A stretch of DNA of 64,000 bases from a virus (lineage: Duplodnaviria > Caudoviricetes), in IMG/VR virus record IMGVR_UViG_3300028048_000120, positions 1 to 64,000 of that record; one strand, 5' to 3'. The notes beneath the pieces were generated by a model. The model had not been told where the DNA came from and ran no database searches. It saw only the letters and a program-made list of their open reading frames with translations. Numbering within the stretch: position 1 is the stretch's first letter; each line of letters starts with the position of its first letter. A program made the position numbers and the translations under genes. This document shows, piece by piece, positions 5,056 to 51,600 of this stretch.

Positions 5056-5499
5056 ATGGATAAAAGTGAGAAACATATGCAGAAAGCACAAGGAAAGCAG
5101 AGAACACGGATTATGGAGGAGATGGAGAGGGATCTTATCAAGTTGTATAGACAAGAAACCAGCAAATATACATATATGTTTCAGTCTGATGTCTATAATA
5201 TCATCTTGAATCATCCCGCTCCTCGATACTATGTCACGCCGGAGTGGGCATATAAAAGAATCAAAGGCTTGCAATATGGCGACACAAGTTGTTTGGACGG
5301 TCTGAATCCTCTTAAGAAGGAGATGTACCTAAGTCTTTTTGAGACTGTAAAAAGGTTGTCGGAGAAACCGAGCTTTAGAAAGAAAACGCTGCACTACATC
5401 CTGCAATATGCTGTTCTGGAGCCAGCGCCGAAATTCTACATAGGTATATCACGGATGGGAGTAATATTCCGAAAGAACCGAATGTCGCATCGAAATTAA
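5056..5499 (+). CDS. Hypothetical phage protein (basic, possible DNA-binding)
   Basis: 147-aa ORF after promoter, co-oriented with rhomboid and terL. Confidence 0.55.
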   Translation: MDKSEKHMQKAQGKQRTRIMEEMERDLIKLYRQETSKYTYMFQSDVYNIILNHPAPRYYVTPEWAYKRIKGLQYGDTSCLDGLNPLKKEMYLSLFETVKRLSEKPSFRKKTLHYILQYAVLEPAPKFYIGISRMGVIFRKNRMSHRN

Positions 5500-5505
5500 A
5501 TTAGA

Positions 5506-5970
5506 ATGGAAATAAAATACTATGTTGCGCTCTTTTTGATATTTATATTCGTCCTGTTTCCTCAGACTGGGTATGAGGTAAATGGACCGATAATAAACCA
5601 TTTTACGTGGATATTCTGTCATGCGAATATTTTCCATCTGTTTGGTAATATCGTATGTCTGCTGATGCTCAAGAGAAAATTATTTCTCATACCGGCATTC
5701 ATTATCTCTGTAGTGGCCTCTTTTGTTCCGGTATGGAGCATTGGTGGTTCATACGCCACAATGGGATTCTCAGGAGTGTTGTTTGCTATCATAGGTATTA
5801 AGTACGGGGATGTCGGTAAATTAAAACTATGTGCTAAGAATTGTCTGCCGTGGATAGTGATAAGCATATTTTTCCCTCACATGAACTGGTGTATTCACCT
5901 GTATTGTTTGGCGATAGGATATTTGTATGGAGCAATCAGAAGAAGATATATTACAAGAACTCGTAGCTGA
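5506..5970 (+). CDS. Rhomboid-family intramembrane serine protease
   Basis: Hydrophobic 154 aa with HANIFHLFGN (HxxxxHxxxN), GFSG (catalytic Ser, codon 5770) and IHLYCLAIG (catalytic His, codon 5896). Confidence 0.85.
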   Translation: MEIKYYVALFLIFIFVLFPQTGYEVNGPIINHFTWIFCHANIFHLFGNIVCLLMLKRKLFLIPAFIISVVASFVPVWSIGGSYATMGFSGVLFAIIGIKYGDVGKLKLCAKNCLPWIVISIFFPHMNWCIHLYCLAIGYLYGAIRRRYITRTRS

Positions 5971-8071
5971 GAATAAGAGAAGAAACTATGAGATGTTTGA
6001 GGGGTTTAACCCTTGGACTGGAAGGGGGTGCCCCGGCAAGAGAACGAAGGTTTCGATTGTCGGGTTCCCCTTGAAGTCTTTTCTGATGCCTAATCGCTGC
6101 TGGCGAAACTTGATGTGGCAGAAGATAAGGAAGTATAATGACATCGACAAATTCTTGACTTATGAGATGAAAATGGAAGCAAGCGAGATGAACAGGAAAA
6201 TGGTGATACAGATGATCATCAGAATTCGTGCTACTGAAGACCCAGCATTTGCTTTCGCTTGTTTCTATAAGATACAGTACAAGAAAGATAATAAGTACGG
6301 AAGAGCTGGTACAATGGGACCATTCATCCTTAACTACGGACAACGAAAAATCTTGGAACATTGCGAGAAGATGCGCTTCGCAGGCAAGCCGATTCGGCTT
6401 ATTATCTTAAAGGCCAGACAGGTAGGAGGATCTACATTTTCGCAAGGTTATGAGAAATGGATTTCCGACTTTCTCCATGTGGGATGGAACATTGCTATTC
6501 TTGCCCATGTAAAAGATGCCACAAAGCGTATTAAGGCTATGTTTACGAAAATGCTGGAGAACCAACCAGGGTGGAGCATCGGAGCAGTCGGTGAGCAACT
6601 CCTATTCTCGCCATATGAGAAATCTAGCAACGACTTCATTGTCACAAACACAAAAGGAGAGGTGAGAAGAAATACCGTAGTTTCTGTGGCATCTTTTGAG
6701 AACTACGATTCATTGCGATCTGCAGACTATAAGCAGGCACATTATTCTGAGGTAGCATATTGGAAAGCCACTCCTGGTAAAGAACCGGAAGAGGTGTTGT
6801 CATCTATTGATGGTGGTATACCATTAGACCCTGATACTTGTGAAATCATGGAGTCATCTGGGAAAAACGCCTCCGGACTATTTTACGAATACTATAAGGC
6901 TGCGAAAGACCCCGACATGCCATCTATATGGGATCATCTTGCCATCTTCTATTATATGTCGGAGAACGATAGACTTCCGGTAAATGATCAGATGGGATTT
7001 GCCCGATGGCTATGGGAGAACAGAGAAAATCCTCAGAACCCTAAAGGGTATCTAGAGTCGGGCATATTTTTTTGGAAGCAATGGAAGAAGGGCGCCAGCT
7101 TTGAGGCTATCAACTGGTATCGTGTGCGAAGAAATTCGGTGAGGTCTCATGTGCGCCTTGCTACGGAGGCACCGAGTGATGATGTTGAGGCTTTTCAGAC
7201 ATCAGGAAGTCTTATCTTCGATATGTATTCTCTTGAAGCTATGGAGGAAAAATACCGTAGAGATCCGATTTCCGTAGGTGATATTGTATCGGATTACGCA
7301 GATACCGGTGCCAATGCAATAAAAACCGCGAGATATGAACCCGATGCGATGGGATCTCTTAGAGTATGGAAGTTCCCTGATAATGTTCTGAAGGTGTCAA
7401 ACAGATATGTAGTTTCTGTAGATATCGGTGGTGTACATGATAAGTCGGATTTCACCGTGATGACGGTAATAGATCGACTAGGTCAGATGGCATCTCTTGG
7501 AGGTAGGCCAAAAGTCGTGGCAAGATGGAGAGGACATATTAAGCACTCTCTCTTGGCATGGAAGGCAGCCATGCTTGCGGAATACTATAACCATGCCATG
7601 CTTGTCATAGAAAGTAATACCGCTGATACCGACAAGGGAAAATATACGGAGGATAACATGGGTACGGAGGGCGATCACTTCCTGACAATCATTGAGAAGC
7701 TTGCGCCGTCATATAGTAATATCTATATCCGTCAGTCTACAGAAGACAGTATTACACATGATGTTAAGAATCAATATGGATTCAACACAAACGTAAAGAC
7801 GAAGCAACAGGTTATTGATACTATCTCAGATCTTATTGATGAGCAGGATTACGATGAGCCTGACCATCTATTCTATTCTGAGGCCCGAATATACGAAAGA
7901 CATGAAGATAACAGCCTTGGTAATGCAATTGGCCCGGGAAATCATGATGATATCGTGATGTCAACGGCTATTGGTCTTTTCGTATCTCTTGTCAAGATGC
8001 CTGCACCGGCATTTATCGCTAGAAAGCCAATGGCAATGAATCATAAAGTTATGAACGAATCAACATTCTAA
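5927..8071 (+). CDS. terL: Terminase large subunit
   Basis: IILKARQVGGST Walker A, HYSEVA Walker B-like, IMESSG motif III, YVVSVDIGG and HDDIVMS RNase H-fold nuclease motifs. Confidence 0.92.
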   Translation: MEQSEEDILQELVAENKRRNYEMFEGFNPWTGRGCPGKRTKVSIVGFPLKSFLMPNRCWRNLMWQKIRKYNDIDKFLTYEMKMEASEMNRKMVIQMIIRIRATEDPAFAFACFYKIQYKKDNKYGRAGTMGPFILNYGQRKILEHCEKMRFAGKPIRLIILKARQVGGSTFSQGYEKWISDFLHVGWNIAILAHVKDATKRIKAMFTKMLENQPGWSIGAVGEQLLFSPYEKSSNDFIVTNTKGEVRRNTVVSVASFENYDSLRSADYKQAHYSEVAYWKATPGKEPEEVLSSIDGGIPLDPDTCEIMESSGKNASGLFYEYYKAAKDPDMPSIWDHLAIFYYMSENDRLPVNDQMGFARWLWENRENPQNPKGYLESGIFFWKQWKKGASFEAINWYRVRRNSVRSHVRLATEAPSDDVEAFQTSGSLIFDMYSLEAMEEKYRRDPISVGDIVSDYADTGANAIKTARYEPDAMGSLRVWKFPDNVLKVSNRYVVSVDIGGVHDKSDFTVMTVIDRLGQMASLGGRPKVVARWRGHIKHSLLAWKAAMLAEYYNHAMLVIESNTADTDKGKYTEDNMGTEGDHFLTIIEKLAPSYSNIYIRQSTEDSITHDVKNQYGFNTNVKTKQQVIDTISDLIDEQDYDEPDHLFYSEARIYERHEDNSLGNAIGPGNHDDIVMSTAIGLFVSLVKMPAPAFIARKPMAMNHKVMNESTF

Positions 8072-8073
8072 TT

Positions 8074-10881
8074 ATGGAACATAGAATTAATTTTAAGGCA
8101 GGCATTACTAGGAGCCCGAGCGATTTTCTTAGTGAGGATGGTGAACTTGCAGAGTGCATCAATCTTACTGCTGACGGGCACGAACTAAAGCCTATTCATA
8201 GACCTAAGAAGATCTTTGGTGGGCAGTCGATGAAGGACAGCAACGGACATGTTATGAAGTTAATCTTCATACACAAGTTCAATGGAGTGGAGCATTTTAT
8301 ATTCCAGTCTACAGATGATAAATTGTGGTATTCTGAGGCTGACGTGGAAAATGATTCTATAGAGACTGCCACTAACATGTATAACGGTTCTATACATGTA
8401 ACCAACATCACGGCAATAGGAACAAGAATTGTAATCAGTACTGATGAGGGTCTCCATATTTTTATGTGGAAACAAGACAGCTATAAGGATTACGGGGTAT
8501 CATTGCCAGATCCTGGTATACGATTTTGGATGGAGGATACCTCTGTTAATATCAAAGTCGAATACAAGGATTTCGATCCATTTGTCAGAGAGCGAAGAAA
8601 TAGTGAGTTGTCTGTGTCTAGGGATATGCTTGGATACGATTCCAATGGTAGGTATATCGGACATGGAATTAATACGCCACCTAATGGATCTGCAAATGCT
8701 GAAGTTGTCAGCGATCTAGTTTTTGAGGACAACAAGAAGGATACTATAGATGGATTTAACAATCAGTGTATAGGGTTGATAGAGGAATGTGTACATGATA
8801 TGGAGGAGAAGGGTCGCTTCTGCTTCCCATTTTGGGTAAGATATGCCATAAGGCTATCAGACGGCAAATATGCGATGATATCAAATCCGCAACTTATGTT
8901 ACCTTCCGTAAGAAGGAATGGCATCATATCTCCATACTCCGTTGATGATGACGGGCATCCACATCCTTACAATAACAAAGAATGGCTTTCTCATGCGTTA
9001 TGGACGGCAGATGTAAAATCATCTGTTCTATGTTATGAGGCTACGAATCGTTTTGATTTGGAGAAGTGGGAAGGCGTCATCACGGGAGTGGATATCTTTG
9101 TGTCTGACTGCGTGTATCCATTCGATATGAATGAAGACTGGGAAATCCGTAATCCTGATGGTACAAAGTGGTTGTATAATGACTATGTGTCCTCTACAGG
9201 TGAATATAGACATATGGAATTCGATACCAGCAGTTATATATCTCAGGACTCAGATCAGAAGACGAGAGCCTACAATACGCACTTCATACCGAAGTGGAAG
9301 TCCGATTCTCAGATAATTAAAGAGCTCATCGAGAAATCGCAGTTTTATAAGTTGGCGTCTATAGACTTACAGAAGGTGAACGGCTTGCAGTCAGGTTCAT
9401 TCGGCAACCTAGACCAAGCACAAGTACCGGTAGAGAAAAACGTTATCAGATATATCACAAATCAGACGATACTAGAGAATGATGACTACTATGGTCATAC
9501 CGCTATGACTCCTTCCATGATAACATCATTCAACAACAGACTTCAGTTGACAGGAGTGCGCAGAACATTCTTTGAGGGCTTCGAGCGTTTTTGTCCGATA
9601 AAGTCGACTGGTTCTTACAGTGTCGACAATGGAGATCCAGAAGATATTTATGTCAAGATAGAAACAGACTCGGGTACAAGAGTCGTTAAGAAGGTTTCTC
9701 ATATGTTAGAATGCAGAGGCTATTGGTTCTATTATCCTGATCCTAGAGCCAAGGAAGTAATCTTCAGGTCAGAGGGTGAAAGCCTACATTACAAGCTAAC
9801 AGAACATCCGTATCTGAACGGTGCCTATTATCTAGGCAAATTACCGTCATCAACGGATACCGTCAATTATGCTAATGAGCCTACTCCTACGTTGTCATCT
9901 GAAGCAGAATATCTACAGAACCAGCTGTTAAACTCAAAGGTTGGAAACCCGTGGGTATATACAGCAGACAATGTATCTCACATATCGAATGTGAAGGATA
10001 TCCTTGCTATATCCCCGGTAAAGGCACCATTGTCACAAGACAACTTTGGTTCGCAGCCTTTTGTATGCTATACCAGTGACGGTATTTGGGGTATGAACAT
10101 TGCCAGTGACGGCACGTTTGCAGCAAAGCAAATTGTATCAGGAGATGTTATTATCAACACAGAGGGTATCTTGCAGACGGATGTCGCTACTTTTTTCTTG
10201 TCAAGGAAAGGTCTCATGGCCATCATGGATGGAGGAGTACAATGTGTGAGCGATATGCTGTCTGGAAGTGGCACTGACATTGATGATGAGGTGAATATAG
10301 ACGGAGAATATTTTGATCTTGTCACGGGAGCACACGAAAATGAGCAATTTAAGAAATTCTTAAGAAACTCATTCATGGCATACGACTATGTAGATAAGCA
10401 GATATTCATCATGAAAGGAGGATGCCAATATGGATGGGTATTGAACACAGAAGGCATGCAGATGAGTAAGATAGTATGGAATAAGAGACCTCTAACGGCC
10501 GTGAATAATTACCCGGACTATATTATCGAGGACGAAGAAGGATGCCTGTATTCTCTCTATCAAAAGGAGGACGAAGAAGACTCTAATGAAAGGCAAAAGG
10601 GTTTCCTCTTGACAAGACCCATGAAGTTATCCTCTGCTTTATCCATGAAAGTTATAAAGGACGAACGGCTGTACGGACAATGGTCAGAACGGTATGGTAG
10701 TTCCGTGAGGATGAGCATGATCGTATCTAATGATCTACATATATGGTATCCAAGAGGATCTAAAGGAGGCTCTTCTTTCAAGTTTGTAAGGTTGGCAATA
10801 TACACCAATCTGCTACCTAAAGAGAGATTGTCCGCTGCAGTAATTGTTGATGACACAAGATATGAAGACAAGTTGAGATAA
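8074..10881 (+). CDS. Tail nozzle/stabilisation protein (podovirus-type, beta-rich)
   Basis: 935 aa; N-terminal GITRSPSD...GELAECINL and C-terminal LLTRPMKL as in phage stabilisation proteins; context. Confidence 0.55.
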   Translation: MEHRINFKAGITRSPSDFLSEDGELAECINLTADGHELKPIHRPKKIFGGQSMKDSNGHVMKLIFIHKFNGVEHFIFQSTDDKLWYSEADVENDSIETATNMYNGSIHVTNITAIGTRIVISTDEGLHIFMWKQDSYKDYGVSLPDPGIRFWMEDTSVNIKVEYKDFDPFVRERRNSELSVSRDMLGYDSNGRYIGHGINTPPNGSANAEVVSDLVFEDNKKDTIDGFNNQCIGLIEECVHDMEEKGRFCFPFWVRYAIRLSDGKYAMISNPQLMLPSVRRNGIISPYSVDDDGHPHPYNNKEWLSHALWTADVKSSVLCYEATNRFDLEKWEGVITGVDIFVSDCVYPFDMNEDWEIRNPDGTKWLYNDYVSSTGEYRHMEFDTSSYISQDSDQKTRAYNTHFIPKWKSDSQIIKELIEKSQFYKLASIDLQKVNGLQSGSFGNLDQAQVPVEKNVIRYITNQTILENDDYYGHTAMTPSMITSFNNRLQLTGVRRTFFEGFERFCPIKSTGSYSVDNGDPEDIYVKIETDSGTRVVKKVSHMLECRGYWFYYPDPRAKEVIFRSEGESLHYKLTEHPYLNGAYYLGKLPSSTDTVNYANEPTPTLSSEAEYLQNQLLNSKVGNPWVYTADNVSHISNVKDILAISPVKAPLSQDNFGSQPFVCYTSDGIWGMNIASDGTFAAKQIVSGDVIINTEGILQTDVATFFLSRKGLMAIMDGGVQCVSDMLSGSGTDIDDEVNIDGEYFDLVTGAHENEQFKKFLRNSFMAYDYVDKQIFIMKGGCQYGWVLNTEGMQMSKIVWNKRPLTAVNNYPDYIIEDEEGCLYSLYQKEDEEDSNERQKGFLLTRPMKLSSALSMKVIKDERLYGQWSERYGSSVRMSMIVSNDLHIWYPRGSKGGSSFKFVRLAIYTNLLPKERLSAAVIVDDTRYEDKLR

Positions 10882-11793: not shown

Positions 11794-12562
11794 ATACTGT
11801 AAATGGTATTTGTTTATATATTTTTGGCTTGTGATAACTGTATATTGTCACGATAGCGGTGCCTACATTTTCACCTTCTACATAGAACGTGCCGTTTTCG
11901 GAAGATACGTTAACGACATCAGAGTGGCATACGATGCATAGATCATCTATAGTTCCATCCTGCCGTGATACATCTATGGCTTTCTTCTCATTGACAGCAA
12001 TTGTGTTTGCGATATCAGCTGTATTAGTTCCGGCAACGACTCCATCTATCGTTGTGTTGAACTCTGTATTTTTAGGGGCAACATATGAATTAAAGTTTTC
12101 TATACTAATGCTGTCGGTGTAGTTGTGTGAAGGAGCAGAAGGTTGCTTCTTGTTGCAAATCATTAGGATAATGTCTTGCATCAATACATCAGCTTTACTC
12201 AGGTAATCCTTCGCGAGTTGAGGCTGTACGCTATCCATCCATTTCCCCATAGTGTACTGGAAGCAATAATCCTCGAAAGTGTTTCCTAGATTTGTAGCAT
12301 TTGCAGTGGTATTTTGGGATAAATTGAATGTGAATATTCCATTCCTATAGCTACTATAAAAATCACGAGTATTCGAGATGATGTTATCAACGGCATCTGA
12401 GATATAATCTTCTATGATATCTAATTCCGCTGATGACAGAGTTATCTTATCGAACAGAGATTCCCCGTTCGCATCGACAATTCTTTTACCGATGATGCTG
12501 AGATGCCTTTTAATGCGATCCTCAATATTACTGATTCTGATATTTACTGTTGTCTCTGCCAT
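11786..12562 (-). CDS. Probable ring/adaptor protein with C-terminal Ig-like strand pattern
   Basis: 258 aa overlapping the portal 3' end; VEGENVGTAIVTI Ig-like pattern. Confidence 0.4.
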   Translation of the reverse strand: MAETTVNIRISNIEDRIKRHLSIIGKRIVDANGESLFDKITLSSAELDIIEDYISDAVDNIISNTRDFYSSYRNGIFTFNLSQNTTANATNLGNTFEDYCFQYTMGKWMDSVQPQLAKDYLSKADVLMQDIILMICNKKQPSAPSHNYTDSISIENFNSYVAPKNTEFNTTIDGVVAGTNTADIANTIAVNEKKAIDVSRQDGTIDDLCIVCHSDVVNVSSENGTFYVEGENVGTAIVTIYSYHKPKIYKQIPFTVYA

Positions 12563-14555
12563 TGTATTGAACTTCGTAAGGGTAATTTTTCATGATGTCT
12601 TGTAGCTCCTGTACTTGCTGTTGATTTGCGCCTGGCACATTGACTGGTTGTTGAGGCATCTGCCCTTGCTGAGCCAGCTGAGCCTGTGAGTCAAGGTCTT
12701 GCAAAATTTCCTCTCTGTGAGGAATATTTGAGGAATACTTGATAAGCATTCTTGCGTCGATAACTTGTTTATCGTACATGTTTTGTAACACCTGATCGAG
12801 AACCATCTGATAAGTAGGCGATGATGCGCTATTATGAATAGATGTAGCAAATGTCACGTCATCAGCGGAAGAATCATAGAACATCTGCTTTTCCGCTCCA
12901 TTCTTGGTGACGTTACGCCCATTTTGGTAGAATTGTTGCATAACCTGGCATTTCTTTTGAGCCACTTGTTCCTTGAATGTGCCAAATCTCTTGATGAGGC
13001 CGTATAGTGTAGTAGTCGCATTCTGAGCCTGTAGATTATATAGCGCTCCTGATGTTCCAGCGACTGGTGCCTTACCTTGCAGCGCACCTTGTACGCCTGA
13101 TATCTCATGAACAAGATTAAGCTCCGTCTGAAGGAGTTCATTGGTTCCAATATTGAAGGCCGAATGTGTTATCATCTCAGGTTTGTTGCGAGATCCTGGA
13201 TGAGTGACATCATCATAGACAAGCACCGCATCGAATGACGTAGCTTGTCTCTTGTATTCTTCTATGGTCATATCAGCAGGCTTCATGGATAGAGGGAGTA
13301 TCTTCCATCCCTTGACGGCCTGTCTCACAGACATATCCTGCATGGTAACCATTCTGTTGATAAGTCGCTGCTGATCTATTGTAATAGCCTGATAAGGAAC
13401 AGGTTTGCCATTGATATAAGGGAAGAACACCACCGTAAATGGGTGAGACTTATGATCATAAGGGGTTTCTCCCTCTGCGAGGATGAATCCATCAGGTGTC
13501 AGGAATTCATAATACCAGTACAAGTCAGGAACAACCTCGTACTCTATAAGCAATCTATCTTCCTTGTCGACGCCATCCATATCATACATGGCATTGCGTT
13601 CCTTGTTTTCTGCAATAATCTCGTTCAATGAATTAGTATCATTCAGTTCGATGCGGTAATACATCTCATCTGCATTCTTGCCTAATGGGTCGAAAACCTG
13701 ATATCTTGCACGAGATTCTTGTTTCCATACCTCGATGACACGGCACATATCCGGAGTATCAGAAACATAAAACGATTTATTCTCGTATTCGTGTGCATGT
13801 TCAGAACTATAGGTTCCAGAGCGATCTTTATAAGGATGATACAGTGCATCGATATCCTTCGTGGTAAGTCCGTATTTTTTGCGAGCGAAGACATTATACA
13901 TCTGTTCCACCGTCATATCGATGAGGCGACCGATGAAATATATATCAAGGTTACGAGGATCATCGCCACATTTCCAGAACATGTTGTATGGATTTACGAA
14001 TTCTGTATATGCGTCTTCGATATTCCCACATCCAGGTATTTTTTTCCATTTCTCGTATGCAAAGCCAGCACCTGAAAGGAGTAATTCTCCGAAGATGGAA
14101 TCCATGAGCAAAGGTTCAAGCGTTTTCTGCCAGTTGCGTTGCAATGCTGATGACATCATCTCACTATACTTCTGAGAGTCTTTTTCATACGCATAGCATA
14201 CTGGTTCTGTTTCCTCCTTTGAATGTAGACCTGTGATAGAGAAATACAAAGGGAACATGACATTATTCTGAAGAGGGATATTACCTTGTCTTCTGATAAC
14301 TTCCTTCTCCAGAGCAATAACACCATCTTGTGATATTGTATCAGACCACTGATCATCGAAAGTGTATCTGATGGTGCGATCTCTTTCCTTGCGGAAATCC
14401 TCTTTGCTTATCCATGCGTTTTCCGCTTCATTGAGCAGCGTAAGGTCTAATCTGTTGTCATTTTGCAGGAGCCGTCTTTCTCTTACCGTATCGACTTCTC
14501 CTTTTCTTTGTCCAATAGGAAGCAGATCTCGCCTAGTATATATAGTATTAGTCAT
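12528..14555 (-). CDS. Portal protein (P22-like)
   Basis: 675 aa, Gln-rich C-terminal tail, divergent from scaffold/capsid; size and position typical. Confidence 0.75.
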   Translation of the reverse strand: MTNTIYTRRDLLPIGQRKGEVDTVRERRLLQNDNRLDLTLLNEAENAWISKEDFRKERDRTIRYTFDDQWSDTISQDGVIALEKEVIRRQGNIPLQNNVMFPLYFSITGLHSKEETEPVCYAYEKDSQKYSEMMSSALQRNWQKTLEPLLMDSIFGELLLSGAGFAYEKWKKIPGCGNIEDAYTEFVNPYNMFWKCGDDPRNLDIYFIGRLIDMTVEQMYNVFARKKYGLTTKDIDALYHPYKDRSGTYSSEHAHEYENKSFYVSDTPDMCRVIEVWKQESRARYQVFDPLGKNADEMYYRIELNDTNSLNEIIAENKERNAMYDMDGVDKEDRLLIEYEVVPDLYWYYEFLTPDGFILAEGETPYDHKSHPFTVVFFPYINGKPVPYQAITIDQQRLINRMVTMQDMSVRQAVKGWKILPLSMKPADMTIEEYKRQATSFDAVLVYDDVTHPGSRNKPEMITHSAFNIGTNELLQTELNLVHEISGVQGALQGKAPVAGTSGALYNLQAQNATTTLYGLIKRFGTFKEQVAQKKCQVMQQFYQNGRNVTKNGAEKQMFYDSSADDVTFATSIHNSASSPTYQMVLDQVLQNMYDKQVIDARMLIKYSSNIPHREEILQDLDSQAQLAQQGQMPQQPVNVPGANQQQVQELQDIMKNYPYEVQYNGRDNSKYQNQ

Positions 14556-14706: not shown

Positions 14707-15537
14707 ATGGCAAAAGAATTAGATAAAAAGGCAGTTGACCAACAGACACCTGAAGTTGCAGATGCCGTACCTCAGGATGTTGAAGCTCCTGTAGAAGGTC
14801 AACAGGATCAGCCGACTCCGGATGAAGAACCAACGGAGCCTACTGCTAAGGAAAGATATCGTAACAGATATCAGAAAGCACACCCCGACCTTGACCTTGA
14901 TGATGAGGATTCTTTCTACTCACAAGCCAACAATAATCTAGATGAGTTGGAAGGATTCCGCAAAAACAACGAAGAGATTGGCAAGGCTATAGATGCTAAT
15001 CCATTGTTGGCTGGAATGGTCGTAGCAGCCCGTGAGGGAACAAATCCTTGGGTATATCTGGCAAGGAACGGCGGTCTTGATGCAAGGAAACTAGCCGACA
15101 ATGACGAATTCAACGATTCTATGGAGAAGGCTCTTACTGAGTTTAACGACAATATGGAATCGAACAAGCGTATGTCTGAGGCTCGTGACAAGAACTTCGC
15201 AGAGTCTATTTCAGCATTGAAGAGTATCGCTGAGAAACGAGGCCTATCGATGGATGAGGCTAAGAGCAACTACGAATCATTCTTCAAGATGGTAGAGGAT
15301 GCTGAGAACGGAAAGGTTGCCAAGGAAACTTGGGATGCATGGTTTAACTCCAAAAACTATGATGCAGATGTCAAGTCGGCAGCGGACAAAGCCCGTACAC
15401 AAGCTCTTAACGAGAAATTCCGCAACAAGGTGAAGATTCCAGAGAGAAACCTACCTCCTGATGTAGGAGGTGACCAAGGCGGAAGGGAACCTAAGAAGAA
15501 GAAATCAACAAGTTTCGCAGATTTTGGAATGGAATAA
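14707..15537 (+). CDS. Probable capsid scaffolding protein
   Basis: Acidic, helical 276 aa directly upstream of the capsid gene. Confidence 0.55.
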   Translation: MAKELDKKAVDQQTPEVADAVPQDVEAPVEGQQDQPTPDEEPTEPTAKERYRNRYQKAHPDLDLDDEDSFYSQANNNLDELEGFRKNNEEIGKAIDANPLLAGMVVAAREGTNPWVYLARNGGLDARKLADNDEFNDSMEKALTEFNDNMESNKRMSEARDKNFAESISALKSIAEKRGLSMDEAKSNYESFFKMVEDAENGKVAKETWDAWFNSKNYDADVKSAADKARTQALNEKFRNKVKIPERNLPPDVGGDQGGREPKKKKSTSFADFGME

Positions 15538-15550
15538 TAACACAAACACA

Positions 15551-17233
15551 ATGAAAATGAAAAGTTTTTTGAATTTGATGAACAAATCTTTTTGGATGAA
15601 GGGCTTGAACTTTTTTCTTACCCTCATCGCATTGATTACCGCAGGACCTGTTGCCATCGCTGCTGGTGCTGCCGTTGAAGACCCTACACCTGATGCAGGT
15701 GAACCAGGAAGTCAGGCTACTCCTGACAAGTCAACACCTTCTGGTGATGGAACTGCTCCTGATGGTAATGGCGCAGGTAAGCATGGTACCGGTACCGGCA
15801 GTGCTACAGGCATTCGACAGGCTGGATTGGCAGAAGAGGAGTATGATAAGGATATCGTAAGATACAAGGCTCCTGTATTCGTATTGCTTAACCTTGCCCG
15901 AACCGTGGCAACACAGAAGTCAGTAAAGGGTTACGAAGTACCTCACTTCCGTATTGGCGCTTCTTCTCTGAAGTTGAAAACAAAGGCTGCTATAGCCCGA
16001 GCACATACAATATCTCTCACGAACGAAAATGTTGACGGTAACCTAGACCTCGCTATCCCTGGTTCTACACTTGCCGTATGTGGAGTAAGTGGATTTGTTG
16101 ATGGTTCGAAAACCAAGAAGGAAGGTGACTTGCAGTTGTTCGTTACATCTAACACTGGTGATTCCGTTACATGTGTTGCCATCAATGGTGAGGCAAAAAC
16201 AGATGGCCAGATTTCAGAACGTTTGCAAGACTACTATGTACCTGCAATCCCAGCAGACACAACAATTATGATTAGTGGTGTGGCTGGTTCAGAGTCTCAG
16301 AAGGTTGTTGCTCCGGACAATAGTAATCCTACTCCTAAGACTGTATTCCTACAGAAGGAAATCTTCAATGTACGTATTACAGATCACTATAAGGAGATAA
16401 TGAAGAAGATCGGATGGGGTATCTCAGATGTCAAGGAAGACGGTCTCGAGAATTTCTCTCACAAGGCCGAAGTCAGTCTTTGGACAGGTAAACAGAAGCG
16501 ATTCCTTGTCAAGGAGCCAAAGTCTGGTCAGAACGAGTATACATATACTACAGAAGGTATCCTTCGCCAGTTGAGTAACATCTTTGGTACAGATACCCTG
16601 TCTTATGACATCTTGGTAGATATCATGAAGGTAGAATTCGCCAACAACGGTGATTCTAAGGAAGCATATGCACTTTGCGGTCGTGAGAAGATCTCAGAGC
16701 TCTTGAAAATAGACTACATCAAGAATGGTGTTCAGTTTACTCAGGAGACTACAGAATACGGTGTGATCGTAAACCATATCAAGAACAACTTCGGAACATT
16801 GCATGTTGTTCACGCACCAATGTTGGATGAACTTGAGATGAGTGACTTCATGGTGGTCGCTGATTTGAAATTAGCACGCTACTACCATCAGATCAAGAAG
16901 GAGACAACTACAGACAATAACAAACTTGGTGATGATGCAACAGAGAGCTCACGCTATACATATATCGAGAGTATGGCACTCGCACTCCGTGGCTTCAATT
17001 CAATGTTAGTTGGTCCTTCAGCTAAGATCGCTCAACGCAATCTAAGCACTAGTGCTAACCCAATCACATTGGAGAGCAAGTTGCCAGCTACTGCTGCTGA
17101 GGGTACTAAGGTAGTCCTAACAGAGGATTATACAGTAGGTACCGGTAACGAGGCAAAAACCTACGAAAAGGGTAAGGTATATGTATACCACAACAATGCT
17201 TGGGCTTTATTTACTGGTGACGTAACCGATTAA
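15551..17233 (+). CDS. Major capsid protein with N-terminal hydrophobic leader (likely start 15551, not 15470)
   Basis: Follows scaffold and ends at a strong terminator; resembles Bacteroides prophage capsid proteins (KIGWGISDVKEDG, TTEGIL, NNFGTLHVVH). Confidence 0.75.
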   Translation: MKMKSFLNLMNKSFWMKGLNFFLTLIALITAGPVAIAAGAAVEDPTPDAGEPGSQATPDKSTPSGDGTAPDGNGAGKHGTGTGSATGIRQAGLAEEEYDKDIVRYKAPVFVLLNLARTVATQKSVKGYEVPHFRIGASSLKLKTKAAIARAHTISLTNENVDGNLDLAIPGSTLAVCGVSGFVDGSKTKKEGDLQLFVTSNTGDSVTCVAINGEAKTDGQISERLQDYYVPAIPADTTIMISGVAGSESQKVVAPDNSNPTPKTVFLQKEIFNVRITDHYKEIMKKIGWGISDVKEDGLENFSHKAEVSLWTGKQKRFLVKEPKSGQNEYTYTTEGILRQLSNIFGTDTLSYDILVDIMKVEFANNGDSKEAYALCGREKISELLKIDYIKNGVQFTQETTEYGVIVNHIKNNFGTLHVVHAPMLDELEMSDFMVVADLKLARYYHQIKKETTTDNNKLGDDATESSRYTYIESMALALRGFNSMLVGPSAKIAQRNLSTSANPITLESKLPATAAEGTKVVLTEDYTVGTGNEAKTYEKGKVYVYHNNAWALFTGDVTD

Positions 17234-28896: not shown

Positions 28897-29370
28897 ATGA
28901 ATGACATTAAGAGTCTCTTGGTATGGGGTGGAGGAGCATTACTTACAATGCTCTCACCCATTAAGGATTTTATGCTGGCCGTGATGATCCTTTTTATTTT
29001 AGATTTCACGTTCGGTGTAATAGCCGACAAGTTCAATGGCGAGAAATGGGAATGGGACAAAGCAAAGAACTTTTTCAAGAATGTGTTCTACTGCTGCGTT
29101 ATCATCGTATCCCTGTTCGTGATAGGCTATTTCCTGCACGAGGCAGTTGCAGCGGAATATGCGGTTAAGACATTCTGCCTAGCTGCATTCGTCATTTTCT
29201 TTACGAAGATTGTCAAGAACTGGAGGAAATGCCTAGTACCGGGTACGGAATGGTATAAGCTAGCCGACTTCCTGTATTATCTATTGAGCTTCAGTATTGT
29301 AGACCGACTAAAGGTATACAAGGATTACCAGAAGTTCAAGGAAGATAACGGAAAGGAGGAAAAGAAATGA
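28897..29370 (+). CDS. Holin
   Basis: Several TM segments, basic C-terminus, overlaps lysozyme start. Confidence 0.7.
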   Translation: MNDIKSLLVWGGGALLTMLSPIKDFMLAVMILFILDFTFGVIADKFNGEKWEWDKAKNFFKNVFYCCVIIVSLFVIGYFLHEAVAAEYAVKTFCLAAFVIFFTKIVKNWRKCLVPGTEWYKLADFLYYLLSFSIVDRLKVYKDYQKFKEDNGKEEKK

Positions 29371-29798
29371 ACCCAAGCAAGACCCTTATAGATCACATAA
29401 AACAGGCGGAAGGTTTCAGTGAGAAAGCATACTGGGACCAAGACGGAGGTGTGTGGACGATTGGATACGGGCATACTAGATCTGTGAAAAGAGGAGATGT
29501 AGTATCGAAGTCGGAAGCGGAGAGGCTCATCGTATCTGACTTAAAGAATGTAACAGCGTACCTCAGCACCATAAAAGAGATAAATACCCAAGGCAAGTTT
29601 GATGCCTGTGCAGATTTCTGTTTTAATATCGGCACGGGAGCCTTTAAATCATCTACACTACTGAAGTTGATAAAAACCGGTGCTCCTGACAAGGATATAC
29701 AAGCACAATTCCGCAGATGGGTGTATTCAGGAGGAAAGAAGTTACCAGGATTAGTAACAAGAAGAGGATGGGAGGCAAAGAGATGGGCAGAACGATGA
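29367..29798 (+). CDS. Endolysin, GH24 phage lysozyme
   Basis: EGFSEKAYWD..GVWTIGYGHT; FDACADFCFNIG; LPGLVTRR. Confidence 0.92.
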   Translation: MNPSKTLIDHIKQAEGFSEKAYWDQDGGVWTIGYGHTRSVKRGDVVSKSEAERLIVSDLKNVTAYLSTIKEINTQGKFDACADFCFNIGTGAFKSSTLLKLIKTGAPDKDIQAQFRRWVYSGGKKLPGLVTRRGWEAKRWAER

Positions 29799-30262
29799 TT
29801 GCAATAATTGTAACTGTAATGTTGTGCGGTTGCAAGACCTACGTACCTGTTGAGAGAGTGCATAACACAACAGATACACTATATATAGAAAAGCACGACA
29901 CATTGCGTGTTGAGGCTAAGCATACCGAAATGAGCGACAAAGTTGCCGAACGGGAACATATACGCAGAGACAGTGTATATATGGTAGTTGATGAGGCTGG
30001 AAATGTAAAGAAGACATACGAATACCACTATCTTGGAGACAAGCAACTGGAAAGACAAATCCTTGCGCTTAGAGATAGCGTGAATTACTATAAGATGCTG
30101 AGTGAATATCTTGCGGAGAAGAATACAGATCACCAGCAAGACCGAGTGGTGGAAAAGTTATCTATATGGAGTATGTTTAAGCCATGGATGCTTATTCCAC
30201 TTTTAATTACATTTATAGCAGCAGTATACCTATTAATAAGGAATTTCATAATACATAAATAG
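29795..30262 (+). CDS. Spanin, probably unimolecular (likely start 29795)
   Basis: MIAIIVTVMLCGC lipobox and C-terminal TM helix, directly after the endolysin. Confidence 0.65.
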   Translation: MIAIIVTVMLCGCKTYVPVERVHNTTDTLYIEKHDTLRVEAKHTEMSDKVAEREHIRRDSVYMVVDEAGNVKKTYEYHYLGDKQLERQILALRDSVNYYKMLSEYLAEKNTDHQQDRVVEKLSIWSMFKPWMLIPLLITFIAAVYLLIRNFIIHK

Positions 30263-31039: not shown

Positions 31040-31351
31040 ATGACACAGCCACAGCAATTATATGTCCTAACGGGCGAACAATTGAACACATTTGTTACGG
31101 AATTAGCCGATAAGGTTACTGAACAAGTTGTAAGAAAACTTCGCCCACAGTACATGACAAGAAAAGAAGTAGCAGCCAAGCTACATGTAGTTCAATCTAC
31201 AATTATCAACTGGGTGGATGCTGGTTTGATTCAAGAATACCGTATTGCCGGTAAGGTATTGTATGATCCGGTAGAGGTGGAATCGCAGATTCGCTCAGGC
31301 AAGGTAAAAACTAAGCCAAAGAAACTGGCTGGTAAAACATTTATAATTTGA
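31040..31351 (+). CDS. Excisionase-like HTH protein
   Basis: YMTRKEVAAKLHVVQSTIINWVDAGLI..YRIAGKVLY. Confidence 0.75.
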   Translation: MTQPQQLYVLTGEQLNTFVTELADKVTEQVVRKLRPQYMTRKEVAAKLHVVQSTIINWVDAGLIQEYRIAGKVLYDPVEVESQIRSGKVKTKPKKLAGKTFII

Positions 31352-31572
31352 AGAAGATGAAAAATATCAAGAACATATTGAAGGTAATGGCGCTAGGCGC
31401 TTTCCTTCTTGCGACATTAGGTATCATCGGTAACGATGAGCACTATGAACAAGTGGCTTACTCTATGGGGTATGAAAAATATCAAGAGATATCTAATCAA
31501 TTGAAATCTGAGAATGGCAAGATACCTACAAGAGAACAAGTAGTGGATAGGTATCTTAAGATGAATAGATAG
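31348..31572 (+). CDS. Small hypothetical protein with N-terminal hydrophobic segment
   Basis: 74-aa coupled ORF. Confidence 0.5.
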   Translation: MKKMKNIKNILKVMALGAFLLATLGIIGNDEHYEQVAYSMGYEKYQEISNQLKSENGKIPTREQVVDRYLKMNR

Positions 31573-45680: not shown

Positions 45681-48600
45681 ATGAGTGGAGAAGTTTGCCT
45701 TATTATGACTCCTAAATTGGAGGAATTATACAACAAATTACAGAGTAAATACCCTAAAGAATGTGAAGCATCCTTGGTAAATAAAAATGTTTTTCTAGGT
45801 TGGGTAGAATTATATCAAAAAGATTTTAATAAAACTCCTGACTTTACACCAGATTTAAAATCACTTGTTCCTTATGTTGAAAATCTTAGAAAGAGAGAAG
45901 GAAGATCTTTCCTTAATAAAGAGATAGCTCAAAAAAGTGAAGCTAATTCTACATTGGTACAATTTATAAAGGATATTGAAACTTTAGCTGGTTATTATGA
46001 AGGAGGAGGTAGAGTTCTTTCTGATGATGTACCTAATTTCCCTAATGAATTAGATGATAAATTAAATGACTATTTCATGGAGGGTAAGGAACTTTCTTTA
46101 GATGACTATAGAAAGCTTTGGAAAGTTCTAGAATTTAAAGATGGTAAGGTATATGCAAGAAAACCAACAACAACTGAAGATAATAAGCAAGATATTGTTA
46201 CTCAGCTTATAGATCAATTAAAGGCTTCAGGTATTACTGTTCTTGGTAAAGCTGATATGGAAAAATATCTAACAGAGAAAGGTAAACTAGACCCTGTTTA
46301 CACTTTGCAAGCCATTAAGGAGAATAAAGAAATGCAAGATATTAAAGCCAAAGCTCTTGCTGATGGTACTTTCATGAAAGCTCCTAATGGTAAACCTACT
46401 AATCTTACTGAAAGACAGTGGCTTCAAGTTAGAACTAAAGCTTTTAAAGAATGGTTTGGTGATTGGGAGAATGACCCTACTAATGCTTCTAAAGTAGTAG
46501 ATGAGAATGGTGAACCTAAAGTAATGTTTAGGACTGATGGAGCTAACAAGACTGTTATGGGTAGGGGTGACGAAGGATCTTTTTTTGCTACTGACAATCT
46601 TTCTGTTGCTGGTTCTTATGCTTCAAAAGAAGCAAGTTTATATAAAGGGTTTGTTAGTTTAAAGAATCCATATATTATTAAGGGAGAATCACATGGTTTT
46701 TTCTTTGAATATAAAGGCAAAGAAACTACAGTACAAGAAGCACAATCATCTTTAATAGAAGAAGGATATGATGGTGTTTATTTTGAGCGTACTTGGGATG
46801 TAGGAGATAGGGTAAATGTAGGTAAGGATTATTGGGCAAACAATGTTGCGATGTTTAATCCTAACCAATTTAAATCAGCTACTGATAACAATGGCGAGTT
46901 CTCTACTGAGAATGATGATATTCAGATGTTTATTGGCAAGAAAGCGTATGGCAACCCTCTTACAAGGGACTTGTATTATGCAGAAAATCAATATAAGAAA
47001 ACAATACAGCAAATAAATAGTTTGGAAAGAGAATTAAATAGTAATATCTATGAAGATTCAATTTCAACTAAAAATGGCAGTATTAAGATAGTACAAAATG
47101 AGAGATCAAAAGATTCTTCTGAATATGATAGAGATACTATTACTTTAAGTTCTGGTAGATCTATTTTTGGTAGGGTAAGTATATCTATTCAAGCTAATGT
47201 TAGCAAAAATCTGATAGGTGGTTCTATCCTTTTCCCAAGTATAGAAATTAATAATCCTAACAATAATTATCTCCGTTTAGAAAACCCAATCAGAAGTAAT
47301 CATGCAAGCCTCTTAAAAACAGTATTACAATACTTTATTGACAACGGGCACAATAAACCTCATACACAATGGACTCTATATGCTGGAGGCAAATATGGTA
47401 AAGAGTATAATTATAAAGGAAGAATTAAAAACCTAAGTAAAGTCTTAGGTGTAGATGTATCTCCATATTTCCAGTTTGAAATGAGAGATGGTAAAGAGGA
47501 GAATACAGTAGAAGAGAGAGTTATTGTTGATGCTAAAGGTCTAATAGAGGCACTTCCAACATTAGTTGATACAAAAGCTTTTTCTAAACTTACTGACGTT
47601 TTGCAGTCCAATGAGCAAAACAATGTTGACTATATTCTCAAGAGGAAAAATCTTACTCAACAGCTACATGAGTTAAATAAACAACGTGATGTAGAATGGA
47701 AGAAAGTTCAAGACATTAAAAAGAAGATTAAAAATGAATTAGATGCATCATCTGACCTTCCATTTTTTATAACTCCTGAAGGTGAAGTCTATGGCTTTGT
47801 AGATGAGAAAGGTAATATATATCTTGATGAAACTGTAATCTCTCCAGAACATCCTATTCATGAATACACTCATCTTTGGGATACAATTCTTGCTAAAAAG
47901 AATCCTGCATTATGGAATAGAGGAAAGCAGTTGCTTAAAGATAAGAATCTTAAACTTAAAGGACATGAAAAGAGTATATGGCAAGAAATAGAAGAAGATC
48001 CTAACTATGGTCTAAAATGGGATAAAACAAAAGCACATTATGAAGACTATGTAGCTTCTGAAGTTCATGCTAGACTTACAGGAAAGAAAGGTCTTCAGCT
48101 TTTAGATGAAATAGCTAAGCAGAAAGGTAGTAAAAATATTATTAGTAAACTTAAACAGTGGATTTTGGATGTTTATAAAGAGTTAAAGGCTACTTTCTCT
48201 AAATGGACTCCAGAAGAGCTTGATAAGCTTACTATAAAGGACTTTACTTACATGACTCTTAGAGATTTTACATCTGGTATGGATTTATCTAATGTTCCTA
48301 CAATATTAAAAGAAACTTCTGATCCTAATATTAGTAAGGAACAAATAAATGAAGCTAGAAATGCACTATATCATATCATACAAACTTCTAAATTTAGAAT
48401 AGATCAAATACAAGATAAAATTAAATGGAACAAAGCAACAAATGAAGATATTCAAAATTTGAATAAATACAAAGTAAAACTCAAAGAAGATACAGAACTT
48501 CTTGCTGGCTTAGATACAGGAAAATCTGAAGTATATATAAATGAATATAATACTCCTATGGTAAGATGGGTGAATAAAAAAGAAAAACCATCATCACCAG

Positions 48601-51600
48601 CAGAACAGTCTTTAATTAATAGTGCTGTTCAAAAACATCAAGGTAATTGGTCAAGGCAAGAAGCCCAAAATAATCCAAAAATCCTTTATGTATTTACTGA
48701 TAATACAGACAGAGATAGTGGCTCTGGTATAATTCCTGCTGATAGCTGGTACTCTAAGAAATATGGTGCAGGTCATCATTTTCCAACAATGACTGCTGCT
48801 GTAGTCAGAGGATTGGATAATTCTAGACCTATAAGTACTCAGAGATGGTACCATCAAGGAGCCAAAGGTACTACAGGTAGATGGACTGATGCTGACATAG
48901 AAGAATTTAAAAAAGTAATTCGTGAAGAACTCCAGGAAATAGTAAATGAATTTAATACTGGAAAATATGATACTATCATGTTTCCTGATGGAGATGGTTT
49001 GTTTAATACTCGTATATCTGCCATCTCAAAAACAAGAACTCCTAAACTTTATCAGGCTTTAGGAGAATTGCTGCATGAATTTGGGTTTGACAGCTTAATC
49101 CCTTCTGATATTACAATTTCTAATTCTACTGCTCCTACTAGTACATTAAATATCACACCTGCAAAACCCGTTGATAAGAAAGCAGCAGCTAAAGGTTCTA
49201 TATCTAATAAGTTTATAGGATTTGCTGAGGGAATTGCTGGCTCCTCTACTGCTGAGTATGCAAGACAAGCAGGGGACAAGGCTAATGTTGGCAGTTATAA
49301 CGTTAATGATGTTGTGTTTGTATCAATTCCAGGTTTAAGAGGGAATGAGATTGTAAGACACCAACAGCAAGATAAAACTATTGCAGAAGCTTTAAAGGCA
49401 CTAGAAGCTGGAGCTACTTTGGTAACAGATAACAAAGCCTATACACAGAGCAGTACTTATAATGAAGGTGAAAAAAAGCTTGCTAAAGCTCTTGAAAAAG
49501 CTGGGGCTGTTTATTCTGAGAAAATTGTTAATAACCAAACATTAGGAATATGGATTTTACCTAGTACTAAAAATACTGGTTTAAATAATATTACTGCATA
49601 TAATTCTGATAATGTTGTAGATAAAACTCCTAAACCAGCAATACAAAAGAAGGAAGTAAAAGAGATAAGTAATCCTAGATCTGAAGCTATAAAATCTGCT
49701 CTTGAAATAAGTAAGAATGAGGATAGGGAATATCATGAAGCATTTTCACCTAGACAAATAGCTGATTTAGGAGAATATTTTGGTAAGGTATTTAGTCGTA
49801 AGCTTGATGTAATAGAAGGAGACAGAATTGATGAATTAAATGAATTACTATCTGATGATAGTTATACTAAAAAAGAAAAAGAAGAGATAAGGGAAACTCT
49901 TAATAAGTTTGAAGATCCTATAAAAGGTAGACAACTTATAGCTCAGGAATATGGTATTAATAACCTTATTAATGATGTATTAAAAGAAGTAAAAGGAAAT
50001 ATTGAGGATGCTGAGGAATATAATAATGAAGATGAACTTGTATTATGGACTAATGCAAAAAAGTACTTTACTAAAATATTCAATGAGCAGACAACCTTAA
50101 ATATTGAAGAAGCTGAAGGTATCAGAATAGTAGACTTAGAAGTTAAAGAAAATACTACAGATGATCCTAATAATGATGAAGATGAAGATGATGACACTTC
50201 TCAGTATGCTGATAAAGAAGCCAGTGGTTGGTTATATAAAGCACGTTATACAGACCCAGCAAGTACTCTATCTAAAAAAGTTAAGAGGTTATTTAGTTAT
50301 ATAGAAAAGGAGGTTTTAGTAATAGATAAAGATGGTAATGGTAAATATGTAACAGAGAAGAATAGTATAGGAATGCCTAAATACTATTCTACTAGTCAGG
50401 TATATGCAACTTTCCTTTCTTACTTCTCTAATAATGTGAAAAACCCTGATTCTTTCATGTATATATGTAAAACATATAATGAACTGGTAGAAGCTATAGG
50501 AGAGGATGAAGTTAAAGAATGGGTAGCTGAAGATGAGGAAGAATTTAAAGAAGAGTATCCTTATGGCTATCCTTTGTTCCCAGCTCTTGAAGAGATGGAA
50601 AAACAGTATCCTTGGGTAAAGGGAATAATTGGAAAGCTTACAAATGATTTTTGGAAGGGTAATACTTACCATACCTATGGTACATTAAGTTCTCAAATGT
50701 ATTCAGGATTAAAATTAGCATTCATTCCTTATGATAAGTATGATAAAACTGCTGGTAGATTAAGGTATCTTAATCATGATATGGCTGAACAAGTAATGCT
50801 TGAAAAGCTTAAAACCAATTATTATAATGGTATTACTCTTACTAATACATCTATTTATAATAGTGATGGGAGTATCAATGTTGAGCATCTTCAGGAATTA
50901 AAAGAGAATGGCTATGGTCATGTGGATACAGGCTTAAAGCCACTTACTACAGATGCTTCAGAAGAGGAAATAAAAATTTATAATGAAGTCATTAAGGAGT
51001 ATCTAAATTATATAAGATCTTTTGGTATTGATATGAATGCAAATGCCGTAGTTGCCTTAGTTGCTTCAGAAAGAATAGGTGGCTTCCTCAGGAGACTAGG
51101 ATATATACAAGATGTTATAAGTAAACAAATAGAAAGTGGGGCAAAGAGTGCAGATACCTTTGATTACATGGTAGACGTCAGACACCTCAAGAGTGATGTA
51201 AATCTATGGAAAGACTTATTCACAGGAGCAGGTATAATCACTGATGACCAATATGTACAGAGTTTCCGTGATTCAGCTACTAAGAAAACTAAGTATAGTT
51301 ACTCATCAGATAACTATATTATGAATACTTTCAGAAGTATAGGTATGGGAAGTCTCGAAGACAGAAGAGCATATATTGATGAACACTATAGTAAATATGA
51401 ATGGTTCAGAAATCAGAAAACAGGAGAATGGAGAAATTATTGGCTTGATATATTCTATAATAGAGGAATAGATAATTTGAAAGGATCTGTTGATGAGTTC
51501 CTTTTACCAGCTTATAGAAATGTAGATAATGTAGAGGATGAGAAAAAAGGCAAACCTGTAGTAAGAAAATACTCTAAATGGACTGCTGAGGATATATTTG

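Follow-up and report, generated by a model that had tools for sequence, protein, structure and literature searches.

A signal-like leader on a tailed-phage capsid protein co-occurs with a phage-encoded rhomboid and points to a possible membrane-linked step in capsid building

The window analysed here is a stretch of 64,000 nucleotides (positions 1 to 64,000 of IMG/VR virus record IMGVR_UViG_3300028048_000120) from a gut Prevotella/Bacteroides phage of the Caudoviricetes. Two of its genes are the subject of this work: that of the major capsid protein, whose product begins with a leader resembling a secretion signal, and that of a small rhomboid, an intramembrane protease, in the packaging region. 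As far as can be read from sequence, the pair points to a possible, undescribed membrane-linked step in the building of tailed-phage capsids. HK97-fold capsid proteins are soluble cytoplasmic proteins. The capsid gene and the parts of its product are:

15551..17233, plus strand: gene of the major capsid protein precursor (560 aa, HK97 fold, SU10_MCP family)
15551..15604, plus strand: n-region of the leader, residues 1–18, with four Lys; the usual family start is Met3 (15557), from the family alignment
15605..15646, plus strand: h-region of the leader, residues 19–32, LNFFLTLIALITAG, ending in a conserved T-(G/A)-G helix breaker
15647..15661, plus strand: c-region of the leader, PVAIA, residues 33–37; predicted scissile bond between Ala37 and Ala38 (between 15661 and 15662)
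15662..15838, plus strand: disordered acidic Gly/Ala/Thr/Pro linker, residues 38–96, net charge −6
15839..17230, plus strand: folded HK97-type body with an extra C-terminal domain, residues 97–560

Residues 1–18 of the translated gene (MKMKSFLNLMNKSFWMKG) hold the four lysines, and residues 19–42 (LNFFLTLIALITAGPVAIAAGAAV) are encoded by 15605–15676, to the base where an earlier note, written from the letters alone, had placed a hydrophobic stretch behind a basic N terminus. The basic n-region leads into a hydrophobic stretch of about 19 residues that closes in the c-region PVAIA. The linker beyond it, which the same note had described as rich in Pro, Gly, Thr and Asp, is indeed of that type (13 Gly, 10 Ala, 7 Thr, 6 Pro, 5 Asp and 4 Glu), with a computed length of 59 aa in place of the suggested 45 or so. 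An AlphaFold2 model built from 34 homologues has a helix at residues 5–30, disorder at residues 30–96 (predicted local distance difference test score (pLDDT) <50) and a folded body from about residue 97. The HK97 fold is borne out by a match to Pfam SU10_MCP (PF17236; 45.6 bits, cut-off 24.1) and by the top Foldseek matches of the body, which are the capsids of Vibrio phage VP1 (2e-19), phicrAss001, SU10 and HK97; a profile of the capsid family returned only noise from PDB sequences, and the homology was seen by fold search instead. The gene sits where a head module would have it, with a scaffold-like gene directly before it and a P22-type portal gene nearby.

The gap between the end of the upstream gene and the capsid ATG is 13 nt, and the reading frame has no ATG, GTG or TTG from residue 28 up to residue 93, so that the TTG at residue 93 is the sole downstream candidate start. 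Translation from beyond the helix, a possibility raised in the earlier note, is implausible on this ground and in view of the conservation of the leader at the protein level. There being no conserved Met after the leader, an internal-start (‘precore-like’) reading was likewise rejected.

The same succession of n-, h- and c-regions is found in all 120 database homologues of the capsid protein (37–87% identity), save for evidently truncated gene calls, and since it is conserved across homologues its presence is not due to chance. At the protein level it persists down to about 25% identity of the body. We pooled 133 unique leaders from database homologues, IMG/VR relatives, cultured Bacteroides phages and more distant members, and aligned them by anchoring on the last Ala before the first charged residue; Ala at −1 is thus set by the anchor, and it is also invariant, as Ala37, in an independent alignment of 34 capsid sequences (A2). 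In the pooled leaders the n-region has a net charge of +2.7 and the uncharged stretch averages about 23 aa, with Gly at positions −8, −7 and −5. Position −4 (P4) is Val, Ile, Met or Leu in 95/133, and −3 is Ala, Cys or Ser in 100/133 and Met, Leu or Phe in 24. Directly after the junction, +1 is Glu or Asp in 110/133 (Glu 71, Asp 39), Pro in three and Gln in none of the 133, at variance with the Q-rule of Bacteroidetes, and P2′ is Gly in 43, Ala in 35 and Val in 25. The 30 residues that follow the junction carry a net charge of −6.0.

Judged by this residue profile, the leader has the architecture of a classical, presumably cleavable Sec signal. A lipoprotein (signal peptidase II) reading was rejected, as the Cys is at −3, occurs in only 41/133 leaders and is preceded by Val or Ile. 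One lineage (L049/L120, IMGVR_UViG_3300031998_000056) has Pro after the conserved Ala (GGGCMA before the junction, PGTIENP after it), at a position where its close relatives have Val. Pro at +1 blocks signal peptidase I, and this variant is worth testing as a natural discriminator between proteases.

The second gene encodes a rhomboid with the following features:

5506..5970, plus strand: mini-rhomboid, 154 aa, six transmembrane (TM) segments; overlaps terL by 44 nt
5620–5649, plus strand: TM2 motif His39/His44/Asn48 (HxxxxHxxxN)
5770–5772, plus strand: catalytic Ser89 in GFSG (TM4)
5896–5898, plus strand: catalytic His131 (TM6)

That this reading frame encodes a rhomboid, as the earlier note had it, agrees with a narrow pass against the Pfam family Rhomboid (PF01694, MEROPS S54; 23.7 bits, cut-off 22.6), with the retained catalytic residues and with a GlpG-like model; PF01694 is precomputed for most of the homologues. 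Ser89 is kept in 112/112 unique phage homologues, and His131, His39, His44 and Asn48 are each kept in 111/112; the latter three are invariant in the rhomboid alignment (A1). The AlphaFold2 model (pLDDT 88, predicted template modelling score 0.85) has as its 38 best PDB matches only rhomboid-fold chains, nearly all of them GlpG, with query template modelling scores of about 0.5–0.68 for the GlpG matches and a Foldseek E-value of only 8.5e-3. Its loops hold 13 Lys/Arg on the predicted cytoplasmic side and none on the other, and the L1 loop is very short. The predicted topology is that of GlpG, with both termini inside the cell and the active site at Ser89 opening to the periplasm. By these signs the open reading frame (ORF) at 5506–5970 appears to encode a genuine six-TM rhomboid with an intact catalytic apparatus.

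The cultured temperate Bacteroides phages BS-TP4 and BF1-TP2 (PMC12694917) have rhomboids of their own, at 12924–13442 of the BS-TP4 locus (L129) and at 9719–10186 of the BF1-TP2 locus (L130); the latter has GASA in place of GxSG. In NCBIfam these two proteins match only TIGR03902, the rhombosortase model, and do so weakly (27 and 17 bits, cut-off 84); the window rhomboid does not match it at all. The model is 154 positions long, the size of the phage rhomboids; membership in the rhombosortases was rejected, the scores being far below the cut-off. In an abundant subgroup of IMG/VR relatives (L151–L185 and L054–L068) the rhomboid gene is about 3 kb from terL on the opposite strand, retained despite rearrangement of the module. 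A tblastn search of INPHARED with the window rhomboid gave no match, the rhomboids of BS-TP4 and BF1-TP2 being too diverged for that search, and scans of IMG/VR with the single rhomboid or capsid protein also gave none, so that alignments were needed as queries.

Leader and rhomboid are strictly co-distributed. Starting from the capsid family, we found the rhomboid in 14/15 IMG/VR records, the lone miss being a 10-kb fragment, and in 6/6 of the records at least 90% complete. Starting from the rhomboid, the capsid family was found in 38/43 records, and in 13/13 of those at least 90% complete. Two of the five misses (L092, L096) contain a diverged leader-bearing capsid gene, whose product starts MKKIKFFVYVLVGVLMSTLSIAFGGVCMA, with GA after the junction, and the other three are incomplete records. 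For two records with a rhomboid and no capsid match (G037 and G038, 70% and 23% complete), a read-through six-frame search near the rhomboid revealed no hidden capsid gene; in their complete relative G039 a leader-bearing capsid gene lies far from the rhomboid. A scan with a profile of TerL, the large terminase subunit, took in the best 80 of more than 547 IMG/VR relatives. Among 139 TerL-bearing loci, 97 have both rhomboid and leader, three have neither, and none of those covering both positions has only the leader or only the rhomboid. The check across related genomes that the earlier note had proposed therefore comes out in favour of the pairing, the two features being both present or both absent in every informative locus.

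The pairing extends beyond the uncultured phages. Both features are present in 3/3 prophages from metagenome-assembled genomes of Prevotella/Prevotellaceae and in BS-TP4 and BF1-TP2, whose capsid proteins are only about 25% identical to that of the window. The capsid leader starts MKKTMSFFCRITLMILAFVTGASSGVMMA in BS-TP4, with EAS after the junction, and MRSKSFFNYLGGLVLTVLAVMLGATTGCGMCMA in BF1-TP2, with VPT after it. The capsid protein of a third cultured phage, BKO1-TP3, shares 95% identity with its BS-TP4 counterpart. BS-TP4 and BF1-TP2 share a block of small protein, rhomboid and terL, followed divergently by scaffold and capsid. In the window, 9.6 kb separate the rhomboid and capsid genes, a distance that takes in terL, the portal gene, three small genes and one of 935 aa. 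Leader and rhomboid are both missing from two prophages of the SU10_MCP type in other Bacteroidota genomes. Separately, a Bacteroidota prophage remnant (L144, G360:C21, 9164–11386) consists of a scaffold gene, a capsid gene with the leader and three genes downstream, flanked by apparent host metabolic genes; it has no terL, portal or rhomboid gene, and is a decayed prophage.

A large sister clade has capsid proteins that lack the leader altogether. With one such protein as query, 68 loci were gathered that have 34 unique N termini (40–100% identity) and are leaderless without exception; none of the 68 has a rhomboid within 10 kb, which brings the informative loci with neither feature to 71, against about 100 with both. 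A whole-record search that hit 14/14 control genomes gave no match to Rhomboid, even at E ≤1, in three leaderless records, of which one is 100% complete. In these genomes terL comes directly after the small conserved protein. The leaderless capsid proteins begin with MAE, MSE, MAA and similar, with a stop codon 1–14 codons upstream of the start, and in the alignment their Met-Ala-Glu coincides exactly with −2, −1 and +1 of the capsids that have a leader. They look, in sequence, like a naturally ‘pre-cleaved’ form. Because they start precisely at the leader junction, that junction probably marks the functional N terminus. The existence of the clade also suggests that the leader is not needed to build the shell and, as the rhomboid is missing too, that phages without the leader can do without the rhomboid. 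Net charge in the early mature region is −6.0 with the leader and −1.6 without it, which argues that the acidic stretch belongs functionally to the leader.

Direct cleavage of the capsid leader by the phage rhomboid is the reading we tentatively adopt, with rather less than even confidence. We infer the following route. The capsid protein would be made as a precursor whose signal-like leader inserts into the inner membrane with its basic N terminus inside and its Gly-Gly/Ala end at the periplasmic face. Insertion would be as a loop: the leader and a portion of the disordered acidic linker, and nothing further, would go into the membrane or translocon, and the folded body would remain inside. 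The mini-rhomboid would then cut at or beside the invariant Ala–Glu/Asp junction (Ala37–Ala38 in the window), the linker would slide back into the cytoplasm, and the mature protein, now beginning with the flexible acidic linker, would be free to join scaffold and portal in cytoplasmic assembly. The charge bias across the helix (+2.7 before it, −6.0 after it) predicts an N-in/C-out orientation and so places the Ala junction at the periplasmic face. With the leader N-in, Ser89 of the rhomboid is predicted to lie on the same face as that junction. Scans with Pfam and PHROGs of 18 ORFs (5056–26058) found no canonical prohead protease (S78, U9/U35, S49 or S21).

The recognition motif of rhomboids consists of a small P1, a hydrophobic P4, a large hydrophobic P2′ and helix-destabilising residues. 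The leader has part of it, namely Ala at P1 (set by the anchor, invariant in A2), a hydrophobic P4 and a Gly-Gly helix breaker nearby. The resemblance to rhomboid substrates that the earlier note saw in the small and helix-breaking residues holds; the hydrophobic P2′ is lacking, and the predicted polarity is not N-out.

A wider form of this reading makes capsid assembly membrane-coupled in the whole of this large clade of phages of gut Bacteroidales, with every subunit loop-inserted, rhomboid-cut at the periplasmic face and sliding back. The leftover leader peptides would then build up in the membrane in proportion to capsid output and might acquire a second purpose, for example in jamming host export or timing lysis. 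We regard this wider form as improbable.

Several points weigh against cleavage by the rhomboid. The leader is predicted to be type II (N-in/C-out), opposite to canonical rhomboid substrates; the established ones (TatA, Spitz and the GlyGly-CTERM proteins) have the reverse polarity. The conserved junction is at the C-terminal end of the leader helix, whereas the canonical rhomboid site is at the N-terminal end, and P2′ is mostly Gly or Ala rather than a large hydrophobic residue. The leader appears to have every feature of a substrate of host signal peptidase I, so that its cleavage can be explained without the rhomboid. Either enzyme would cut on the periplasmic side, which leaves the product's return to the cytoplasm as an unproven construct. 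Few independent events underlie the co-distribution. In a tree of the capsid bodies, which is unrooted and does not set the direction of the transition, the leaderless proteins form a single clade between two leader-bearing groups, so that one transition is visible. In a TerL tree the states of leader and rhomboid are interleaved, with five changes, of which supported branches require at least four, and the leader changes together with the rhomboid in 4/4 independent pairs; a sign test on four pairs gives p = 0.125 and cannot reach significance at n = 4. The interleaving also reflects mosaicism. BS-TP4-type genomes have the genes of rhomboid, small protein, scaffold and capsid together within a single block of about 3.5 kb, and this linkage could explain co-transfer of leader and rhomboid. 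A single nested loss, seen in a first, smaller TerL tree, was dropped once more leaderless genomes had been added and the interleaving through mosaicism appeared.

Of the alternatives, the one that survives best has host signal peptidase I remove the leader at the Ala–Glu/Asp junction while the phage rhomboid clears the leader peptides or acts on a stalled translocation intermediate; we consider it somewhat unlikely. The rhomboid would here be a phage-borne ‘signal peptide peptidase’ for tens of thousands of leader peptides per burst, and its co-occurrence with the leader would still be expected, so that the co-distribution fits this explanation as well as it fits direct rhomboid cleavage. Because the leader resembles a textbook Sec/signal peptidase I signal, with canonical n-, h- and c-regions, Gly at −8, −7 and −5, a small residue at −3 in 100/133, Ala at −1 and Pro at +1 in only 3/133, cleavage by signal peptidase I, which the earlier note had named as an alternative, is as well supported by the residues; the site satisfies the −3/−1 rule, and sequence alone cannot separate the two enzymes. 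The Gly-Gly within the helix is a breaker of the type used by intramembrane proteases, as a clearing role would have it. Against this, the hosts own signal-peptide-clearing enzymes and rhomboids (a host glpG is listed for Porphyromonas gingivalis), −3 is Met, Leu or Phe in 24/133, and three leaders, such as that of L120, have the Pro at +1 that blocks the enzyme. The passenger, moreover, is the HK97 capsid protein of a phage that encodes terminase and portal rather than an extracytoplasmic protein. Gln is at +1 in about 71% of Bacteroidetes signal-peptidase substrates on average (PMC5837995), and its absence from the leaders suggests that the capsid product is not a resident periplasmic protein.

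Less probable still, and in our view unlikely, is that the leader is removed by neither enzyme or not inserted into the membrane, and that the rhomboid cuts another phage or host membrane protein, the pairing being due to ancestry and linkage. The leader would then serve as an assembly-control or interior hydrophobic element, or as a permanent tether for some subunits. The single transition on the capsid tree, the non-significant sign test, the closeness of rhomboid and capsid genes (within about 3.5 kb) in BS-TP4-type genomes and the other membrane proteins encoded in the genome are all compatible with this explanation. So is a reported parallel from ‘Nixviridae’ prophages of P. gingivalis: SignalP-predicted signal peptides were noticed on their capsid proteins, the authors assume cleavage by the phage prohead protease, and the annotation tables list S49 prohead proteases and have ‘rhomboid’ only among host genes (PMC10367356). 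It accounts less well for the pair being kept in the window across 9.6 kb, with terL, the 935-aa gene and the portal gene in between, for a −1 Ala that is invariant in A2 and a c-region conserved far beyond the needs of membrane anchoring, for the leaderless clade starting precisely at the junction, and for the head module having no other conserved membrane protein. Finally, an annotation artefact, with the true capsid start downstream and the leader untranslated or in another frame, has in its favour only that a signal peptide is odd for a capsid protein and that there is a TTG at residue 93, and is scarcely credible, as 133 unique leaders keep their hydrophobicity, Gly-Gly and Ala through many substitutions, the upstream gene ends 13 nt before the ATG, and truly leaderless relatives have a stop codon 1–14 codons upstream of their start.

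Cleavage by the rhomboid can be set beside several known systems, none of which combines an intramembrane protease with an HK97 capsid protein. In the AarA/TatA pair of Providencia stuartii, as proposed for the phage, a dedicated rhomboid removes a short N-terminal segment by a TM helix, thereby activating the substrate, and the site has a small P1, a hydrophobic P4 and helix-destabilising residues nearby. TatA, however, is N-out, loses about 8 residues and remains a membrane protein, whereas the capsid leader is predicted to be N-in, and with it the whole helix would be removed from a soluble HK97 cargo of 520 aa; the enzyme of the window also differs from AarA in being phage-encoded, 154 aa long and equipped with a very short L1 loop. 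Rhombosortase and GlyGly-CTERM resemble the phage pair in that a minimal rhomboid (about 150–190 aa) goes with a signal in which Gly-Gly, a TM helix and a basic cluster are combined. The membrane geometry is alike, with Gly-Gly at the outer end and basic residues inside, but the GlyGly-CTERM signal is C-terminal and on exported proteins, while that of the capsid is N-terminal, so that the polarity of the chain is mirrored.

Sec/signal peptidase I signals share with the leader the n-, h- and c-regions, the −3/−1 rule and an acidic early mature region. They include M13 procoat, a filamentous phage coat protein made with a cleavable leader. Here the passenger is instead an HK97 capsid protein of a tailed phage, in which terminase packages DNA in the cytoplasm, there is no Gln at +1, and a phage rhomboid co-occurs. 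N-terminal capsid extensions removed in morphogenesis are also known from the HK97 gp5 delta domain with gp4, T4 gp23 with gp21, and 80alpha with the host protease Prp, and the leader lies N-terminal to the N-arm, as those propeptides do. The latter are soluble, as are the proteases that cut them, and in HK97 and T4 the cut is made within the assembled prohead; in the window the extension is a membrane-type helix, and the only protease detected in the head module is an intramembrane one. The ‘Nixviridae’, compared by their published description, are alike in having capsid signal peptides in Bacteroidota and unlike in the protease. We found no publication that links a phage rhomboid with a capsid protein, and the paper on BS-TP4 and its relatives (PMC12694917) does not mention a rhomboid.

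Very few natural substrates of bacterial rhomboid proteases are known, to our knowledge. In these phages, a clade abundant in human and animal guts, an active-looking rhomboid is kept in the packaging region if and only if the capsid protein has the leader; of 930 gut viromes from China, 31% are reported to contain BS-TP4 (PMC12694917). Should the capsid protein be the substrate of this rhomboid, the two would represent a new route of capsid maturation and a rare defined substrate of a prokaryotic rhomboid, and would offer a handle on the membrane organisation of assembly in these phages. If assembly is membrane-coupled, the rhomboid would be the first intramembrane protease in tailed-phage morphogenesis and the leader a natural type II rhomboid substrate. 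With three relatives in culture and the leaderless, rhomboid-less sister clade as a natural control, the question can be tested directly.

The genes adjoining the two main ones are:

5056..5499, plus strand: small conserved neighbour of the rhomboid gene, phrog_27246, possibly the small terminase subunit by position only
5927..8071, plus strand: large terminase subunit (terL), by a weak PHROG terminase match (E 4e-4), position, homology and more than 547 relatives
12528..14555, minus strand: portal protein, P22_portal, phrog_156
14707..15537, plus strand: scaffold-like protein, phrog_22323, directly upstream of the capsid gene

The terL assignment also rests on homology to the BS-TP4 and BF1-TP2 gene with the structure annotation ‘Terminase’. 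In GenBank this gene beside the rhomboid is named ‘tail spike protein’, both in BS-TP4 (L129, PQ571277.1, 10838–12934) and in BF1-TP2 (L130, PQ571263.1, 7675–9702), and the capsid gene of the two records is named ‘DUF2951/DUF5309 protein’.

Elsewhere in the window, 45681–56699 encodes a protein of 3672 aa, of which the C-terminal 2339 aa have no match in five complete relatives (genomes of 55–75 kb); the source record of the window is 83.7 kb, longer than these relatives. The right half of the window may come from another phage, by mosaicism or chimeric assembly. A holin-like protein of 157 aa with three hydrophobic segments (28897–29370) and a spanin-like protein of 181 aa with a lipoprotein-type N terminus (containing MLCGC) and a C-terminal TM segment (29717–30262) probably form a lysis cassette. 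An ORF of 74 aa at 31348–31572 has a basic-plus-hydrophobic N terminus (beginning MKKMKNIKNILKVMALGAFLLATLGIIGNDE); its product could be a second small membrane or secreted protein, and could also be a protease substrate.

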